This document shows, in pieces, positions 874-58,013 of a DNA stretch of 61,517 nucleotides. The DNA is taken from assembly GCA_040753435.1 (NCBI GenBank), contig JBFMEN010000047.1, positions 1 to 61,517 on the forward strand. The letters are read 5' to 3'. Both the position numbers and the translations under genes were made by a program. Numbering within the stretch: the stretch's first letter is position 1; every line of letters begins with the position of its first letter. Source of the DNA: Candidatus Omnitrophota bacterium (GTDB taxonomy: Bacteria > Omnitrophota > Gorgyraeia > Zapsychrales > JANLHA01). The notes below the pieces were generated by a model. That model did no database searches. It was not told the origin of the DNA and was given only the letters and a program-made list of their open reading frames with translations.

Positions 874-3800
874 TCACAAAGTGACCGCAAAATTGTCTTC
901 ACCCACCATTTCTTTAATAGTATTAAATAAATGTTCATTGGGATGAACATAGAGATCTTTTCCTATCAGGATCTGGACGCTTTTAAATTTCGTGGTATTT
1001 AATTCCAAATAAACAGGAACTCTGCCCGGGAACCTCCCAAGCTGTTTCTTAAACCGGGCCAGGCCCTCTTGATCCATCCCGGCCAGATTAACTTTAACCG
1101 CCTTTATCGTTTCATAGACATCGCTAATCTTTTTTAAATCATCGCAAATAATATTTACAACTTCATCACGCAAGGCAGCCTTTCCAAGAATGATCACAAT
1201 CTGGCCCGGCTGCAAGCGTTCAGCCACCTTTTGATAAACAGATGGAAAAATAACTCCTTCAATACTTCCGAATACATCTTCCAATGTCACGATAGCCATG
1301 CGTTCCCCTGTTTTTCGGGTAGCGGTCAGCTTAACATCTGTGATCAATCCAACGAATTTAACAATTTGCCCTTCGGAAAAATGCGAAATCTCCTTCGAAG
1401 TTCCATTAGAAAATTTCTTAATCTCAAAACAATACTGCTCCAAAGGATGCCCGGAAACATAAAATCCGATTACCTCTTTTTCATAGGCAAGCATCTGACT
1501 TTGCGGCCACTCAGGAATATCAGGAACAGACTGGATATCCTCGCCGAAGCCATTATCGCTTTCTTCCATACCAAAGAAAGATAACTGGCCCGAAGATTTC
1601 TCTTTTTGATTACTCCCGCCAATATTCAATGCCTGATCACAAACGGCCATCAGTTGAGATCGCTTCTCCCCGAAGCAATCCAGCGCCCCGCATTTAATTA
1701 AGCTTTCCATAACTTTACGGTTCACTAAACGCAAATCAACCCGGGAACTGAGATCAAAAATGGATTGATAGGCCCCTTCCTCTTCACGGTTATGTATAAT
1801 TGACTCAATCGCAGTTTGGCCTATATTTTTAATTGCCAACAAGCCGAAGCGAATTCTTTTCTCGTCGACAACACTGAATTCAAGCACGCTTTCATTAATG
1901 CTCGCAGGCAGCACGGCAATCTTCAGGTTCTCACACTCCTTAACATACTCAACTATTTTATCCGTGTTATCCCGTTCGCATGTCAGCAATGAACACATAA
2001 ATTCAACCGGGTAATTCGCTTTCAGAAATGCCGTCTGATAAGAAACCATCGCATAAGCGGCGGAATGACTTTTATTAAATCCATACCCCGAAAAATAATC
2101 GATCAAATCGAACAGTTCATTGGCCTCCCGCTCCTCTATGCTGCTGAATTCTTTACATCCCCTGACAAAATCCTCCCGCATCCTAAGCATAACATCGACT
2201 TTTTTCTTGCTCATGGCCCGGCGAAGATTATCGGCCTGGGCCATGCTGAAACCGGCCAAAACGCTTGCCGTCTGCATAACCTGTTCCTGATAAACAATCA
2301 TTCCGTAAGTTTCTTTGAGTACCTTTTCGAGTTTTGGGTGAGGATAGACGACCTTGGCTTCTCCCTTTTTCCTCCGGACATAATCGTCGAGCATGCCGCT
2401 GCCCATTGGACCGGGGCGATAAAGCGCCAGAATGGTAATTAAATCTTCAAATTGGGAAGGCCGGCTTTTCCGCAGCAGTTCACGCATACCCGGGCTTTCC
2501 AGCTGGAAGATTCCTATGCTGTTTGCATTTGATAAAAGGGCGTATGTCTTTGGATCGTTAATGGGTATGTTTTCAATATCAAGCTTGATTCCTTTTGTCT
2601 GCTCCACCCATTTCACCGCTTTTGCAATCACAGTCAGGGTACGCAACCCAAGAAAGTCCATTTTGAGCAGTCCCATCTGGGCAATCCCGTCCATCGTATA
2701 GCCCGTGGTCATCTGGCCGTCCGTAGAACGGTATAAGGGAACATATTCGGTGAGGGGTTTATCGGAAATAACGACTCCGGCAGCATGGATCGAGGCATGC
2801 CTGTTGAGACCTTCAAGGACTTTGGCAGTATCGATAATATCTTTAGCCGTGCGGTCTTCCTCGCACATCTTGACAAGGCCAGGTTCGACTTCAAGGGCCT
2901 TCTCTATCGTCATTCCCAAATCCGGCGGAATAACTTTGGCAAGACGGTCGACATCAGCATAAGGAACTCCCATTACACGCCCGACATCCCTGACGGCAGC
3001 CCGGGCCTTCATTTTTCCAAAGGTAATAATCTGGGCGACATTGGAATCTCCATATTTGCTGGTAACATAACTAATGACTTCAGGACGTCGATCGAAACAG
3101 AAATCAATATCAATATCGGGCATCCCTGCGCGATTGGGGTTTAAAAATCTTTCAAAAAGCAATCCATACCGTAATGGATCCAGATTAGTGATTCCAAGCA
3201 AATAAGAAACAATGCTCCCGGCCGCCGAACCTCTCCCCGGGCCAACCGGGATGTCCTGGCTTTTTGCATAGTTAACGAAATCCCAGACAATAAGAAAATA
3301 AGGGACAAAGCCCGTTTCCTTGATAATTTCAAACTCATGCTTCAGACGAGACATGACTTCGGCTGGTTGACCACTGTAACGGGTCTGCATTCCCTTTAAG
3401 CACAGTTCCCACAAATAATCTTCCTGGGTCTTCCCTTGGGGAGGATCAAACCTGGGCAGATGATACTGATTAAAATTAAACTCCAAGTTGCATCGTTCCG
3501 CAATATCCACTGTGTTAGTCAATGCCTGGGGAATCCATGAGAACAGCCGGTGCATTTCTTCATACGACTTGAAATAAAATTGGTCTGATGCCATGCGCAT
3601 GCGTTTTTCGTCACTTAAAAATGCCTGGGTTTGAATGCATAGTAAGGCATCATGCGCCCTCCACTGATCCCTTTCAAGATAATGGACATCATTGCTTGCT
3701 GCGACCTGGATATTTAAATCCTTGGCAATCCTGACCAACCCCTCATTCACTTTTTTTTGCTCTGGAATCCCATGATCCATTAACTCGAGATAAAAATTCC

Positions 3801-4305
3801 CGGATCCAAGAATTTGTCGATAATCATCCGCTTCTTTCAACGCCGCATTATAATTTTCTGTAGACAACAAATAGGAAATCTCTCCCTTTAAACATGCGGA
3901 CAGACCGATCAGCCCTTTGGAATACTTGGCCAAAACTTCTTTATCGATCCTTGGCTTGTAATAAAATCCTTCCAGATATCCACATGAAGAAAGCTTAACC
4001 AGGTTTTTATAACCCTCATAATCCTTGCATAACAAAACAAGATGCGCGCTGCCTCCCTGTTTTCCGCTCTTGTCGAAGCGAGTTCCCCTGGCAACATAAG
4101 TTTCCATACCAATAATCGGTTTAACCCCGGCTTTCTTTATGATGGAATAAAAGTCAACAGTGCCAAAAATATTGCCATGATCAGTCATGGCAACAGCCGG
4201 CATATTTAAGGTCTTGGCTTTATCCGCCAGTTCCTTAACGCGACAGGCGCCATCAAGAAGACTATATTCGGTGTGGACGTGAAGGTGAACAAATTGATTG
4301 GACAT
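874..4305 (-). CDS. dnaE: DNA polymerase III alpha subunit
   Basis: PHP motif HLHVHTEYSLLDG, GRGSAAGS, PDIDIDF, YGFNKSHS, OB fold; true start ATG 4305 (ORF track runs through the intergenic hairpin). Confidence 0.97.
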   Translation of the reverse strand: MSNQFVHLHVHTEYSLLDGACRVKELADKAKTLNMPAVAMTDHGNIFGTVDFYSIIKKAGVKPIIGMETYVARGTRFDKSGKQGGSAHLVLLCKDYEGYKNLVKLSSCGYLEGFYYKPRIDKEVLAKYSKGLIGLSACLKGEISYLLSTENYNAALKEADDYRQILGSGNFYLELMDHGIPEQKKVNEGLVRIAKDLNIQVAASNDVHYLERDQWRAHDALLCIQTQAFLSDEKRMRMASDQFYFKSYEEMHRLFSWIPQALTNTVDIAERCNLEFNFNQYHLPRFDPPQGKTQEDYLWELCLKGMQTRYSGQPAEVMSRLKHEFEIIKETGFVPYFLIVWDFVNYAKSQDIPVGPGRGSAAGSIVSYLLGITNLDPLRYGLLFERFLNPNRAGMPDIDIDFCFDRRPEVISYVTSKYGDSNVAQIITFGKMKARAAVRDVGRVMGVPYADVDRLAKVIPPDLGMTIEKALEVEPGLVKMCEEDRTAKDIIDTAKVLEGLNRHASIHAAGVVISDKPLTEYVPLYRSTDGQMTTGYTMDGIAQMGLLKMDFLGLRTLTVIAKAVKWVEQTKGIKLDIENIPINDPKTYALLSNANSIGIFQLESPGMRELLRKSRPSQFEDLITILALYRPGPMGSGMLDDYVRRKKGEAKVVYPHPKLEKVLKETYGMIVYQEQVMQTASVLAGFSMAQADNLRRAMSKKKVDVMLRMREDFVRGCKEFSSIEEREANELFDLIDYFSGYGFNKSHSAAYAMVSYQTAFLKANYPVEFMCSLLTCERDNTDKIVEYVKECENLKIAVLPASINESVLEFSVVDEKRIRFGLLAIKNIGQTAIESIIHNREEEGAYQSIFDLSSRVDLRLVNRKVMESLIKCGALDCFGEKRSQLMAVCDQALNIGGSNQKEKSSGQLSFFGMEESDNGFGEDIQSVPDIPEWPQSQMLAYEKEVIGFYVSGHPLEQYCFEIKKFSNGTSKEISHFSEGQIVKFVGLITDVKLTATRKTGERMAIVTLEDVFGSIEGVIFPSVYQKVAERLQPGQIVIILGKAALRDEVVNIICDDLKKISDVYETIKAVKVNLAGMDQEGLARFKKQLGRFPGRVPVYLELNTTKFKSVQILIGKDLYVHPNEHLFNTIKEMVGEDNFAVTL

Positions 4306-4317
4306 ATTTGCTTTTAC

Positions 4318-4401
4318 AGCGAAAAACGAAAAGCGAAGATTGAGAAGCGAAGGAACAAAGCATGCGTTTCGCCTTTCGCTTACCGCCCTTCGCCTTTCGT
4401 T
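4318..4401. repeat. inverted array of degenerate 7-mers (5 x AGCGAAR, spacer, 5 x YTTCGC-type) forming a long hairpin
   Basis: agcgaaa/aacgaaa/agcgaag/attgaga/agcgaag (4318-4352) mirrored by gtttcgc/ctttcgc/ttaccgc/ccttcgc/ctttcgt (4366-4400); common symmetry centre 4359.5. Confidence 0.8.
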
Positions 4402-4411
4402 ATGAGATATT

Positions 4412-6226
4412 TTATTCCCATTCAATGGTCGCCGGTGGCTTCGAGCTGATATCATAAACAACTCGATTGACTCCGACGACTTCATTAATAATACGATTAG
4501 AAATTCTGGCAAGCAGATCATGTTCCAAAGGAACCCAGTCCGCCGTCATTCCATCCGTGCTTGTAACGCAACGGATGGCAATGACATTATCATAAGTGCG
4601 TTGATCCCCCATGACACCAACTGTTTTAACCGGAAGTAAAACAGCAAACGACTGCCAGACCTCCCCATAAAGACCGGCTTTCTTGATTTCCTCAAGGACA
4701 CGCTCATCTGCTTCCCGCAAAATCGTCAGCCTTTCTTCCGTAACCTCCCCAAGAATTCGCACAGCCAGTCCCGGGCCAGGAAACGGTTGTCGTTTAACAA
4801 CCGTATCCGGAAGGCCAAGATGACGTCCGATTTGGCGGACCTCATCTTTAAAAAGTTCACGTAACGGTTCAAGCAACTGCAAATGCATGTTTTTGGGAAG
4901 CCCGCCGACATTGTGATGGCTTTTGATGGTTGCAGAAGGCCCTCCGAAAGGAGAAACCGACTCGATCACATCGGGATATAAAGTTCCCTGGGCCAGAAAA
5001 GCGGCATCTTTGATCTTTTTGGCTGCGTCCTGAAAAACTTTCACAAATTCATCGCCGATGATCTTTCGCTTTTCTTCGGGATCAACGACTCCTTCCAATC
5101 TTTTAAGAAATTGTTTGGAGGCATCAATAACGGTCAAATTCATTTTTAAATTGCCTCTAAAAGTACGTTCAACAGTTTTGACCTCATTATTGCGAAGTAA
5201 TCCGTTATCGACAAATATGCAATTCAGCTGCCGGCCAATCGCACTGTTAATAAGCGTAGCAGCGACGGAAGAATCGACCCCTCCGCTTAATCCCAAAACG
5301 ACCTTCTTTTTCCCGACAGTTTCCTTAATCTGTTTTAACGAAGTTGTGACAAATTTTTCCATGGTCCACCTGGGAAAACAACCACAAATCTGATAAACAA
5401 AATTAGTGAGGATGTGTTCGCCTTTTTGAGTATGGACCACTTCAGGATGGAATTGTACGCCAAAAATCTTCTTCACAGGGTGACTGATGGCGGCAATCGG
5501 AGCGTTGAGAGTATGGGCCAGAACATTAAAACCCTTCGGAAGAACAATGGTTTCATCGCCATGACTCATCCAGCATGTCAGATTTGTTGGCAGATTAACA
5601 AACAGATCCCGGTTACGGTCAATAAATAACTCTGCCCGGCCATATTCCCTTTGTTTACTGCGATTTATTTTACCCCCATGCATATGCACAATCGACTGCA
5701 TGCCGTAACAAATTCCAAGGATCGGAATTCCCATTTCAAATATTTTTTCATTCGGTAAAGGGGCGCCTTCATCATAAACGCTCATTGGCCCACCGGACAA
5801 AATAAGCCCCTTCGGATTTTGTTTCAAGATCTCTTCAGGGTTAATATTAAATGGAACGATGCGGCAAAAAACTTTATTCTCCCTGATCCTTCGGGCAATC
5901 AATTGTGTATATTGTGACCCGAAATCAAGAATCAAAATTAAATCTTTATGTCGTTGTTTGGTCACTTTAATCGAAAACTTTAAACGACCTTTAGGCGCTC
6001 GAAGTTTTGGCGTTTTATTTCTTACGCCCATCCCGGATTTTTTTGAAAAAAATACTTTACCTTTCGAGGCAGTGACTTTCCCGGACTCATTTTTAGTCAT
6101 CGGCATCTTTTGTGATGTTTTCTTCACAGGTGTCTTTGTCAGAGTTGCTTTCCGTGAGGTTCTTTTAACCGCATTTACAGTCTTACTGGATACTGTCTTT
6201 TTCGCAACTTTTTTTGATTTTGACAT
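4412..6226 (-). CDS. guaA: GMP synthase (glutamine-hydrolysing) with ~92-aa Lys-rich N-terminal extension
   Basis: [46 protein letters not shown]; AGGTG SD 6 nt before ATG 6226. Confidence 0.96.
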
Positions 6227-6279
6227 TTTTTTCACCTAATTTTTTAATTAAGGATTTTGCCCTTCTGCTCCCCAAAAAA

Positions 6280-9624: not shown

Positions 9625-9665
9625 AAAAAAAGAAAAAAGGGTAGAGATCTTCGCTCTACCCTTTT
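9625..9665 (-). terminator. intrinsic terminator after groEL
   Basis: aaaagggtagag-7 nt loop-ctctaccctttt perfect stem followed by a long T tract on the minus strand. Confidence 0.85.
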
Positions 9666-9697
9666 CATTTCCTGCTTGCGTTCTTTATCTGAACTAA

Positions 9698-11341
<1,644 letters not shown>

Positions 11342-22932: not shown

Positions 22933-23784
22933 TCAAATAACTAATAATACTTTTATTATGAGCAAGACAGGATAATCCAGGCTCATCTCGTTTTGGGGAA
23001 GGCCTTCAATTTGAACGCATTGGTCCAGAAAGCTGTCCAGCACGCTCCGATAACCCATAAGGTAAAATGTCTGGCCGTCATCGGTGGTGATTTGGTGACG
23101 GATATTTTCATTGGAGGTTTGAGAAATTAGTTTAACAGTACCCTTTAAAAATACTTTTATCTTCTCTTCTTCGGCCCTTAACCTCTCTTCTTCGGCCTGT
23201 CGTCTTGCCTCTTCCTGGCGTCTTAAAGTATAAATATTTTTGGTGGGTAATTGAACGACCCGGGGAGGAGCTGTTTCTTTGGAATGAAAATCAACAAAAT
23301 CGACATAAACCCAGCCATAAGTTCCCTCGACAGGAGAAATAGCGTACCAGTCATCCAGGGTCTCAAGCAACTGAACTTTTGTCAGCTTGTTGAGTTGGCC
23401 GATCACGGATGAATTCAGATCTTTTCTGGCCCGAATATTAACATGATTGCCATTGATCTCACCGATTCCATCCCGTAAAAAATTAACAAGCTTCCGATTC
23501 ACGTAACATTTAACGTTTTCCGGAAGCTTGACCCGATACCAGCTAAAACTTTTCTCTACGACCGTAACTTTGTCGCCCTTTTTAAATACGCCCAGGGTCT
23601 CAAAACTTTCATCCTGGCCGGCCCGAATGTTCGCCTTTTCCACATTGACAATTCCTGTAAAAGGAAATTCCTGGGCATAGACGTAACTAACATTCAACAA
23701 AAATAAAACCACAAGGCAGGCAGAATGGCTGCGTCTTATCAATGAAAAAAAAATTCCTGCAGTTTGCCGGGAAAAATTTTTCAA
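22933..23784 (-). CDS. secreted protein with two bacterial SH3 domains
   Basis: signal peptide; two repeats of N(I/V)RA...G...W(Y) SH3b pattern; charged linker; TTG start. Confidence 0.8.
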   Translation of the reverse strand: MKNFSRQTAGIFFSLIRRSHSACLVVLFLLNVSYVYAQEFPFTGIVNVEKANIRAGQDESFETLGVFKKGDKVTVVEKSFSWYRVKLPENVKCYVNRKLVNFLRDGIGEINGNHVNIRARKDLNSSVIGQLNKLTKVQLLETLDDWYAISPVEGTYGWVYVDFVDFHSKETAPPRVVQLPTKNIYTLRRQEEARRQAEEERLRAEEEKIKVFLKGTVKLISQTSNENIRHQITTDDGQTFYLMGYRSVLDSFLDQCVQIEGLPQNEMSLDYPVLLIIKVLLVI

Positions 23785-30245: not shown

Positions 30246-30319
30246 TGGAGCGAGGGACGGGAATCGAACCCGCGTAGCCAGCTTGGGAAGCTGAAATTCT
30301 ACCACTGAATTACCCTCGC
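30246..30319 (-). tRNA. tRNA-Gly (anticodon CCC)
   Basis: cloverleaf by hand: acceptor GCGAGGG/CCCTCGC, D stem ATTC/GAAT, anticodon loop TTCCCAA, T loop TTCGATT, encoded CCA; 74 nt. Confidence 0.97.
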
Positions 30320-30348: not shown

Positions 30349-30987
30349 TTAAGCCTTATTAATTTTTTCTTTTAGCCTTTTCGCCGCCAATGCCGCATCT
30401 GCCGCCATACAAATCGCTCGAGTAACTGCTGCCCGACGATATCCACATGACAACAAACTTTCAATGTTATCACAGGTTATTCCGCCGATCGGAAATACCG
30501 GAATCGATAACTTTTCCTTCACATCGGTCAACAGCTTTAAATCAAGAGGAGATCTTTCCGGCTTGGTTAATGTTTTAAAAACCGAACCAAAACCGATATA
30601 ATCTGCTCCTTGCTGTTGCGCTTCAATAGCCTGGGACAATGTCTGGCAGGAAACGCCGATAATAAAATTCTTACCGGCTAAACGTCTGGCATGAGATAAT
30701 GGAATATCATCTTGACCGACATGAACCCCGTCGGCATTCGACGATAATGCGATATCTAAACGATCATTAACGATAAATAAATGTTTACCGCCCAGCCTCC
30801 TGATGACCCGTGAAGAAAACTCCATTATCGCCCGCGCGGAACCAGCCTTATCCCGTATTTGGAAAATATCAACACCCATGATCGCAGAAGCATCAAGAAT
30901 ATCAAATAGCTTTTCATACCCTGCGACCTGTGTATCCAATACGCAATACAACTGAGCCTGCCTCAACAATTGACCCTTATCATTCAT
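30349..30987 (-). CDS. thiE: thiamine-phosphate synthase
   Basis: QIRDK, IVNDR, DGVHVGQDD, GADYIGFG, TKP, PIGGI. Confidence 0.93.
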   Translation of the reverse strand: MNDKGQLLRQAQLYCVLDTQVAGYEKLFDILDASAIMGVDIFQIRDKAGSARAIMEFSSRVIRRLGGKHLFIVNDRLDIALSSNADGVHVGQDDIPLSHARRLAGKNFIIGVSCQTLSQAIEAQQQGADYIGFGSVFKTLTKPERSPLDLKLLTDVKEKLSIPVFPIGGITCDNIESLLSCGYRRAAVTRAICMAADAALAAKRLKEKINKA

Positions 30988-57350: not shown

Positions 57351-58013
57351 TTACTGCTGTTTATTAGCTTTCGCTTTACCTTTTTGAGGTATAACCTGTC
57401 CGTGATAAACCCATACTTTAACACCGATCACACCATAAGTCGTATGGGCTTCGGAAAAACCAAAATCTACATCAGCGCGCAACGTTTGTAAGGGCAATGA
57501 GCCTTCATGATACGTTTCCCGGCGAGCAATTTCTGCACCGCCCAAACGCCCTGCGACAGAAATTTTAATCCCTGGAATCCCCGATTGGATAGCCTGATCA
57601 ATCGATCGCTTTACTGCCCGGCGAAATGCCACACGTTTTTCCAATTGAAACGCTACCGTTTGAGAAATCAACTGAGCATCAGTTGCGGGATTCTTAATTT
57701 CAATAATATCAATCGTTAGATCTTTCGACACAATCTTGGCAAGCTCACTCTTAAGGCGATCAATATCTGCGCCTCTTCGTCCAATGATAACACCCGGACG
57801 AGCAGAGGCTATCTTGATCTTTACCTGTTCTCCCATACGCTCAATATTTACATAGGAAACTGCCGCATGAACATATTGAGTTTTGATGAATTTACGGATT
57901 GCATGATCCTCTTTGATGTTCTTTACATAGTCTTTTGAATCCGCATACCAAAGACTGCGCCAATTCTTATTAATCCCGATCCTTAAAATGTATGGATGTG
58001 CCTTTTGTCCCAC
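57351..58013 (-). CDS. rpsC: 30S ribosomal protein S3
   Basis: MGQK.HP, RPG..IG, GRLGGAEIAR, PLQTLRA, YG.IGVKVW; GTG start. Confidence 0.98.
   Translation of the reverse strand: MGQKAHPYILRIGINKNWRSLWYADSKDYVKNIKEDHAIRKFIKTQYVHAAVSYVNIERMGEQVKIKIASARPGVIIGRRGADIDRLKSELAKIVSKDLTIDIIEIKNPATDAQLISQTVAFQLEKRVAFRRAVKRSIDQAIQSGIPGIKISVAGRLGGAEIARRETYHEGSLPLQTLRADVDFGFSEAHTTYGVIGVKVWVYHGQVIPQKGKAKANKQQ

Follow-up and report, generated by a model that had tools for sequence, protein, structure and literature searches.

A gene-less heptamer-ladder palindrome in the guaA-dnaE spacer of an Omnitrophota genome, probably one copy of a lineage-specific class

In the 61,517-nucleotide contig JBFMEN010000047.1 of a Candidatus Omnitrophota bacterium (assembly GCA_040753435.1), the whole of which is the window analysed here, the genes for GMP synthase (guaA) and for the alpha subunit of DNA polymerase III (dnaE) follow each other on the minus strand, and the 106-nucleotide (nt) intergenic spacer between them (4306-4411) houses a long hairpin made of tandem heptamers (Table 1). 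The assembly, named G000 in this work, comprises 2.21 Mb in 71 contigs, with 45% G+C and a completeness of 94.8%, and the window is its contig C47. It was compared with its relatives in a set of 41 genomes of the order, G000 included, where five others belong to the same genus (e.g. G001, G002, G004 and G005) and 35 make up the remainder. We use the term ladder palindrome for a pair of arrays, built of one 7- or 8-nt unit, that face each other across a short spacer, and FHB for the four-helix-bundle family (TIGR02436/PF05635), whose genes the initial annotation of this DNA, made from the letters alone, had tentatively linked to similar heptamer arms.

Each arm of the hairpin holds five heptamers. 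The units of arm B are the complement of GCGAARR (YYTTCGC), and the degenerate unit of this arm stands opposite the degenerate unit of arm A. The CG/TG cores are found at 4320, 4327, 4334, 4341 (TG) and 4348, and again at 4370, 4377, 4384, 4391 and 4398, in such a way that the mirrored positions all sum to 8719 and the centre falls at 4359.5; direct reading therefore bears out the five-on-five ladder with a period of 7 nt that had been described. The uninterrupted 17-bp helix ascribed to the minus strand was confirmed by counting pairs, as positions 4320-4336 face 4383-4399 with 12 Watson-Crick pairs and five A-C oppositions on the plus strand, without any further mismatch, and these five become G-U pairs on the minus (mRNA) strand. 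Over the full symmetric ladder (4320-4354), 21 Watson-Crick, 4 G-T, 7 A-C and 3 other oppositions were counted.

The 106-nt spacer was folded as RNA on both strands, with 200 shuffles per strand as controls, giving -35.7 kcal/mol for the minus strand (z -3.8) and -33.7 kcal/mol for the plus strand (z -4.2), and not one of the 200 shuffles was as good in either case, both strands folding far better than their controls. Folded as DNA (97 nt), the minus strand gave -18.7 kcal/mol and the plus strand -17.4 kcal/mol. The strand asymmetry noticed at first does exist in the outer helix, but over the hairpin as a whole it amounts to little (2-4 kcal/mol in favour of the minus strand as RNA, 1.3 as DNA), because the inner part has four G-T pairs favouring the other strand and because the plus strand catches up when its register slips by one unit.

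The stem reaches down to 4320, which leaves 14 nt to the dnaE ATG (about 13 in the initial annotation). No obvious Shine-Dalgarno sequence precedes this start codon, and there is no U tract, as had been stated. A scan of 4306-4411 gave no promoter-like or terminator-like site, and the T run expected after the stem of an intrinsic terminator is absent on either strand. In an Rfam scan of the whole window the hairpin matched no family, the sole match being a tRNA at 30249-30319. With five head-to-tail 7-nt units per arm, where the heptanucleotide-repeat class has three or more, and convergent arrays 12 nt apart, the element has the make-up of that class.

Table 1. Features of the guaA-dnaE junction (window coordinates), and FHB genes, Y1 transposase genes and carbamoyltransferase junctions elsewhere (contig coordinates)
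Feature	Position	Strand	Description
dnaE (DNA polymerase III alpha)	874..4305	-	From the list of open reading frames (ORFs); start ATG 4305-4303; same start in relatives
Hairpin foot to dnaE start	4306..4318	-	mRNA reads GCUGUAAAAGCAAAU; no obvious Shine-Dalgarno
Arm A, five heptamers	4319..4353		Plus strand GCGAAAA ACGAAAA GCGAAGA TTGAGAA GCGAAGG; 3' arm in the guaA-dnaE transcript; fourth unit degenerate
Central 12-nt spacer	4354..4365		AACAAAGCATGC; apical loop; 6-nt palindrome GCATGC; no ORF, no cargo
Arm B, five heptamers	4366..4400		Plus strand GTTTCGC CTTTCGC TTACCGC CCTTCGC CTTTCGT; 5' arm in the transcript; third unit degenerate
guaA stop to hairpin foot	4401..4411	-	11 nt
guaA (GMP synthase)	4412..6235	-	Longest ORF; stop TAA 4414-4412; C-terminus ...TIEWE (stop)
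FHB gene, C25			Arm unit AAGGATT
FHB gene, C62	C62:42266-42732		Arm unit ACAAGWT; in-frame TAA
FHB gene, C48			Arm unit CCCAAGTT
FHB gene, C65	C65:40814-41420		Arm unit TAAGTNG; no N-terminus
Y1 transposase gene (PF01797), C31	C31:115-684	-	
Y1 transposase gene (PF01797), C48	C48:10756-11457	+	
Carbamoyltransferase junction, G000	C69:114272-114340		GCGAARR hairpin
Carbamoyltransferase junction, G001			FHB gene (114.7 bits, TIGR02436) between AGTGNY hexamer arms
Carbamoyltransferase junction, G005			Only the end of the right arm left
Carbamoyltransferase junction, G002 and G004			The two genes abut

The repeat unit is not confined to this spacer. The pattern CGAARRGCGAARRGCGAA, with one mismatch allowed, has 34 matches in G000 against 4 for a backwards control, so GCGAARR arrays are present beyond chance, and simple scans located about 25 loci with GCGAARR or YYTTCGC arrays. 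A census of ladder hairpins, in which each array was paired with a complementary partner at a gap of at most 130 nt, returned 34 gene-less hairpins, and 37 once periods of 6-9 were included. The idea of a small, repeat-derived dispersed element is thus well founded, with about 37 ladder hairpins and at least six unit families in one genome. Next to GCGAARR, the largest 7-nt family, a period-based scan detected the heptamers AAGGATT, ACAAGTR and AATGGAA, and there are period-8 families of CCCAAGNN, GCACAAGA and GGGGCACN. Complement and reverse controls of the census gave 15 and 7 matches in G000 and 0-1 per sample in relatives; in G000 these controls are not independent of the real ladders, because the unit core is nearly palindromic.

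Copies differ widely in size, the arms having 3-8 units and the loops 2-117 nt. Across the ladder hairpins, the Watson-Crick fraction between arms went from 0.78 in the best register to 0.70 after displacement by a whole unit, which fits slipping arrays and does not fit a position-specific stem, the arms being complementary unit by unit only. A classification as miniature inverted-repeat transposable elements was rejected, since the copies share the repeat unit and not the loops or flanks (a local cluster on C2 excepted), and no duplication was seen in comparing filled with empty junctions. In that cluster (C2:13500-18300), four near-identical GCGAARR hairpins stand between successive genes, 1.3-1.6 kb apart, with CCCAAGNN octamer ladders at both ends; their longer common flanks are GAGTTATTCTTGTAACGAAAGG... 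and ...TTCGTATCAAAATTACCCGCCC, the latter itself tandemly repeated.

The GCGAARR unit belongs to one species within this set of genomes. No match to CGAARRGCGAARRGCGAA was found in the five same-genus genomes, and the other 35 of the order gave two, both with a mismatch and in a single genome. The expectation of similar arrays elsewhere thus held within G000 and failed for this unit in the relatives. A looser scan for GYGAR arrays, covering 400 kb from G001 and 390 kb from G004, detected none, so that a GTGAA version of the unit, derived through CpG-to-TpG change, was rejected.

Comparison of single junctions supports gain of the arrays at these places. Nine ladder loci of G000 have an orthologous junction in the examined part of G004, a genome without FHB genes, and all nine are free of ladders in that genome; in most of them the genes are closely packed, the stop lying near the next start or overlapping it. 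At the rpsA-tyrS junction, G000 has a GCGAAAA ladder and four genus relatives have an ordinary GC-rich hairpin. The dnaK-dnaJ junction has ladders both in G000 (C17:23861-23935) and in the order-level relative G030 (C5:~23629-23702), with unrelated units (CCCAAGNN vs AGCTNTC), and the same junctions seem to be used repeatedly for ladders. The clearest case is the carbamoyltransferase junction (Table 1), where G000 also retains a remnant of the old right arm, CACTAACACTAGCACT, downstream of its hairpin (region to 114420). One site has therefore held, within one genus, an FHB cassette, a hairpin of another unit, an arm remnant or nothing. The AGTGNY hexamer of the G001 cassette is found in that genome solely in the arms of this one cassette, so AGTGNY was rejected as a genome-wide family.

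Two further observations concern these arrays as coding sequence. In G001, G005 and G000, the reading frame of the downstream membrane protein takes in the right arm of the carbamoyltransferase junction, which gives this protein an N-terminus of TxT repeats. An in-frame array of seven GCGAARR units, read as ARKAKGEERTAKSETRK, lies at 30600-30648 in an open frame of 13,923 codons (C52:3-41771), and about 90 nt further on (30737-30764) this frame has an array of the hexamer CACTNN that translates to NTNTDTITDTNT; these two types of repeat are also neighbours at the C69 junction.

At the guaA-dnaE junction itself, synteny is retained over much of the order, with a spacer that measures 0 nt in G009, 16 nt in G031 and 27 nt in G039 and reaches 183 nt at its longest. 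Of 16 longer spacers, seven attain z <= -3 on folding, including those of four of the five genus relatives, and the other nine do not (e.g. G004, z 0.09). Ladder-type arrays of other units were seen in this spacer, namely CAGTGAA (G005), CGTGAAR (G002), AAGAAGY (G040), TGTGACC (G006) and CGGGGAT (G027). The comparison of relatives suggested by the initial annotation gave, in consequence, a divided answer: ladders and folded spacers do recur at this place, but in three genomes there is hardly any spacer and in nine it is unstructured.

The suggested association with FHB genes was found in G000. A TIGR02436 search identified four FHB genes, all four of them between inverted 7/8-nt ladders whose unit differs from gene to gene, and iterating a profile search over all G000 ORFs added none to these. 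Two of them (C62 and C65) look decayed. At least three of the FHB arm units (AAGGATT, the ACAAG type and CCCAAGNN) also form gene-less hairpins elsewhere in G000. Gene-less hairpins outnumber FHB genes by about 9:1. The guaA-dnaE copy matches the cargo-less form that had been proposed, having arms and no gene: the four FHB genes all lie on contigs other than C47, and the 12-nt spacer has none. Two GCGAARR arm pairs of longer range were inspected, with 458 and 2219 nt between the arms (C2, C71), and what they surround is ordinary genes or no gene at all. The C65 copy, with its ladder arms, stands between two apparent tRNA genes, as judged from the sequence.

Ladder density was measured with the same detector in 140-400 kb from each of seven relatives. 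The three FHB-less genomes, G004 (0.39 Mb), G020 (0.40 Mb) and G007 (0.40 Mb), had no ladder hairpin in 1.19 Mb pooled. Those with FHB genes gave 37 hairpins in G000 (four genes, 2.21 Mb), 3 in G001 (three genes, 0.40 Mb), 7 in G030 (six genes, 0.40 Mb), and zero in the smaller samples of G036 (five genes, 0.26 Mb) and G014 (three genes, 0.14 Mb). FHB presence correlates with ladder density, and this correlation is suggestive only, because it comes from eight related, non-independent genomes, partially sampled, with two FHB-bearing zeros.

The class to which the element belongs is already described in the form of intergenic heptamer repeats (PMC4692102, PMC2700814, PMC4679880), and its arm design is common with FHB cassettes and rRNA intervening sequences (PMC4990558). 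Xanthomonas genomes carry 70-75 convergent inverted pairs of GGGAATC arrays each (Rehm et al. 2015, PMC4692102), Geobacter metallireducens has the Gmet_H4 and class 3 heptanucleotide elements (PMC2700814) and the Beggiatoaceae have TAACTGA repeats (PMC4679880). As in those bacteria, the ladders of G000 are tandem 7-nt units, usually in 3-7 copies, dispersed and mostly between co-directional genes, with a lineage-specific unit, and some facing arrays able to form a stem-loop or cruciform. Unlike those repeats, GCGAARR cannot form a G-quadruplex, the inverted, hairpin-forming layout is the rule in G000 rather than a subset, and several 7- and 8-nt unit families coexist. These three papers draw no link to FHB genes.

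Such a link is present in the 23S rRNA intervening sequences of Coxiella burnetii and Leptospira, which carry the S23p/PF05635 FHB gene (Warrier et al. 2016, PMC4990558). They share with the ladder elements a long terminal stem of inverted repeats with tandem heptamers, a heptamer number that varies between strains, and the same gene family between such arms, found four times in G000. Unlike them, the guaA-dnaE copy is gene-less and lies in an mRNA spacer rather than in an rRNA helix, and RNase III, the enzyme that excises them, was not found encoded in this lineage.

This last point bears on how the hairpin is to be read as RNA. The initial annotation had taken the strand asymmetry as a sign of selection on RNA structure and had suggested an RNase III-type substrate. 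In a set of 30 co-directional ladder hairpins, 69 G-U pairs were counted on the sense strand and 71 on the antisense strand, with the loci split 12 to 10 and 8 ties, and the asymmetry was consequently dropped as evidence for such selection. The RNase III model TIGR02191 had no match in G000; PF14622 had none in G000 and matched in one of the 41 order genomes; PF00636 had none in G000 and one above-cut-off match among 20 relatives, inside a 44,856-residue open frame. Elsewhere the RNase III models do recover the enzyme: 8-9 of 14 control genomes have it, as do 86 of the 151 sampled across the phylum, the latter mostly from other classes. The gene thus appears, from these profile searches, to have been lost from this clade, and with the enzyme found neither in G000 nor in 40 of the 41 order genomes, an RNase III-type site is unlikely in this organism. 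A passive stabilising role for the upstream mRNA is possible.

Having these data in mind, we regard the guaA-dnaE hairpin, on balance, as one gene-less copy of a lineage-specific class of ladder palindromes that exists at the DNA level and is passively co-transcribed. A seed array would be gained at the junction and would then grow or shrink through slipped-strand mispairing. The array pair would stay foldable while its units turn over, because the core of each unit (GCGAA/TTCGC) is able to pair with whichever core it meets in the opposite arm. Spread to new junctions would need a trans factor, for which the FHB proteins and two Y1 transposases resembling the REP-associated tyrosine transposases (RAYT) are candidates. 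Since guaA and dnaE are co-directional, with no promoter or terminator between them, the element is probably co-transcribed, and a transcript hairpin of about -35 kcal/mol would persist in a lineage without RNase III. Its action would be at most passive, as a 3'-exonuclease block protecting the guaA part of the message and as a spacer uncoupling dnaE translation.

Several observations weigh against this interpretation. Neither movement, nor target duplication, nor enzyme activity was seen in this sequence comparison. No FHB gene with GCGAARR arms is present in the assembly (94.8% complete), and the FHB-bearing samples of G036 and G014 had no ladder hairpins. A significant hairpin occupies the guaA-dnaE junction in five of the six genus members. 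The loops of G000 and G005 share ATGCTTT, and their cores, GCGAA and GTGAA, are one transition apart; alignment gives an ambiguous answer on whether the G000 hairpin is orthologous to its counterparts in G001, G005 and G003, the shared ATGCTTT being with G005 only. This makes an old hairpin with remodelled arms indistinguishable from repeated colonisation, and the hairpin may indeed be old and locally useful, its arms having been remodelled since. Placement can be listed here too, although it argues neither way: 29 of 32 distinct ladder hairpins lie between co-directional genes, which equals the genome baseline of 88%, so placement is uninformative and an enrichment there was rejected.

A wider extension of the favoured interpretation, which we put forward as speculative and consider rather unlikely, is that FHB proteins and ladder palindromes form one genetic system. 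The protein, a relative of Avd, which is the accessory protein of diversity-generating retroelements, would recognise the 7/8-nt periodicity of the stem and help to install or maintain such stems between genes, each variant being tied to its own unit. The gene-less hairpins would be non-autonomous copies, and the system may have flourished in the RNase III-less Omnitrophota clade, where long double-stranded stems would be tolerated within operon transcripts.

The palindromes might instead be of the REPIN type: RAYT-like transposases would move them, as non-autonomous elements, by cut-and-paste in the form of single-stranded DNA hairpins, as happens to REP/REPIN elements in proteobacteria, and the FHB link would be secondary. 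In enterobacteria and Pseudomonas, repetitive extragenic palindromes (REP) and their BIME and REPIN arrangements accompany RAYT genes, and REP copies can stabilise the upstream mRNA. Like them, the ladders are short, imperfect, extragenic palindromes in species-specific families of tens of copies between operon genes, in a genome with RAYT-like genes, and species-specific families without strand bias fit a DNA-hairpin substrate. The two Y1 genes of G000 both best match NF047646, the model for REP-associated tyrosine transposases (68.8 and 77.4 bits, against 23 bits for the IS200 model), but neither reaches the 80 bits set as the curated cut-off. Some 160 nt separate the C31 gene from a YYTTCGC array, and TTGGGAAC and AATCCTT arrays start 30-90 nt past the C48 gene; ladder arrays are on one side only of each, one flank meeting a contig end. 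Many arm feet start with TAG, TAA or CAG just ahead of the first unit, but no conserved GTAG head is present at the guaA-dnaE copy, whose feet are ATAA and ACAG. Unlike REPINs, which are uniform, the arms are internally periodic (five conserved and two variable bases per unit) and of variable length, with the spread of unit number and loop given above, and at least six unit families would have to be served by only two RAYT genes. Moreover, no ladders flank the RAYT-like genes in G030 and G014; the repeats beside them are inverted repeats of the ordinary sort (TTCCGGGGACAC... and GTAGGGACAGCGCC), one of them with a classical GTAG head, and small REP-like families of G000 itself, AATATTAGGGACAGACAC and AAATAGGGCTCCGTCCCCTATTC, suit the RAYT role better. 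In view of these flanks and families the REPIN explanation is kept as a rival only, and we judge it unlikely.

Two other explanations are, in our estimation, very improbable. The hairpin could be what remained of an arm-gene-arm FHB cassette after deletion of the gene joined the arms. Its arms have the very design seen in the four FHB cassettes, FHB genes do decay in G000 (one has an in-frame TAA and one is truncated), and the carbamoyltransferase site is taken up by a cassette in G001, by an arm remnant in G005 and by a gene-less hairpin in G000. Against this, GCGAARR is the largest 7-nt family and no FHB gene has such arms, the 12-nt spacer contains no gene remnant, and gene-less hairpins are in a large excess. 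At C69, too, the hairpin has a unit different from that of the G001 cassette and lies beside the retained old right arm, supporting that it replaced the cassette and was not derived from it. With equally little probability, the hairpin would be a locus-specific RNA element selected on the mRNA strand, a double-strand processing site or a stabiliser setting the guaA:dnaE ratio. All five transition mismatches of the outer helix point toward G-U on the mRNA strand, the minus strand folds better, stable spacer hairpins occur in most of the genus, and the heptamer stems of Coxiella 23S rRNA intervening sequences are cut by RNase III (PMC4990558). The data that oppose it are the absence of an RNase III domain in G000 and 40 of the 41 order genomes, the lack of a sense-strand G-U excess in the family, the four inner G-T pairs that favour the other strand, the short or unstructured spacers of relatives, and the lack of sequence conservation and of an Rfam match.

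Some features near the repeats and transposase genes were recorded in passing. The REP-like AATATTAGGGACAGACAC and AAATAGGGCTCCGTCCCCTATTC, recorded in C71:55056-55230 and 57395-57500, C31:843-900 and 1435-1530, and C33:14899-14982, directly adjoin GCGAARR arrays at four places. The glycosyltransferase gene upstream of the C48 Y1 gene (region C48:9000-12686) seems to have a ladder hairpin within its reading frame, at around 9659-9743. The assembly is interrupted by a repeat at the end of C48, whose final 127 nt match, as reverse complement, the opening 127 nt of C31 (region C31:1-1700).

As for the neighbouring genes, the nearest named GuaA homologues come from Omnitrophota metagenome-assembled genomes (70-71% identity), and guaA homologues with 80-85% identity were found in 40/41 relatives. 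The dnaE translation from 4305, MSNQFVHLHVHTEYSLLDGAC, is a canonical PHP-domain N-terminus, its N-terminal reading from the ATG at 4305-4303 being MSNQFVHLHVHTEYSLLDG. The 30-mer at the dnaE start had no exact match in metagenome contigs, and the exact DnaE protein had no record. The dnaE frame is open for 72 codons upstream of the ATG (4306-4521, minus strand), across the whole hairpin and into the end of guaA, and for this reason ORF finders give dnaE as 874..4521; the open frame through the hairpin is probably due to chance, aided by the composition of the repeat unit.

Taken alone, the guaA-dnaE hairpin is nothing unusual in G000, where about 37 of the kind exist, and it shows no sign of a locus-specific role; it is the class, and not the single copy, that matters. 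That bacterial genomes have more heptamer repeats than expected has been on record since 2007, as cited in PMC4692102. G000 offers handles on this long-standing puzzle, which are a unit restricted to one species, the filled, empty and gene-bearing states of one junction in sister species, sister genomes lacking both FHB genes and hairpins, and two RAYT-like genes as an alternative mobiliser. A further handle is the apparent lineage-wide loss of RNase III, which takes away the usual explanation for such stems. In this way, what was a vague association becomes a set of hypotheses testable at the bench and by genome census.

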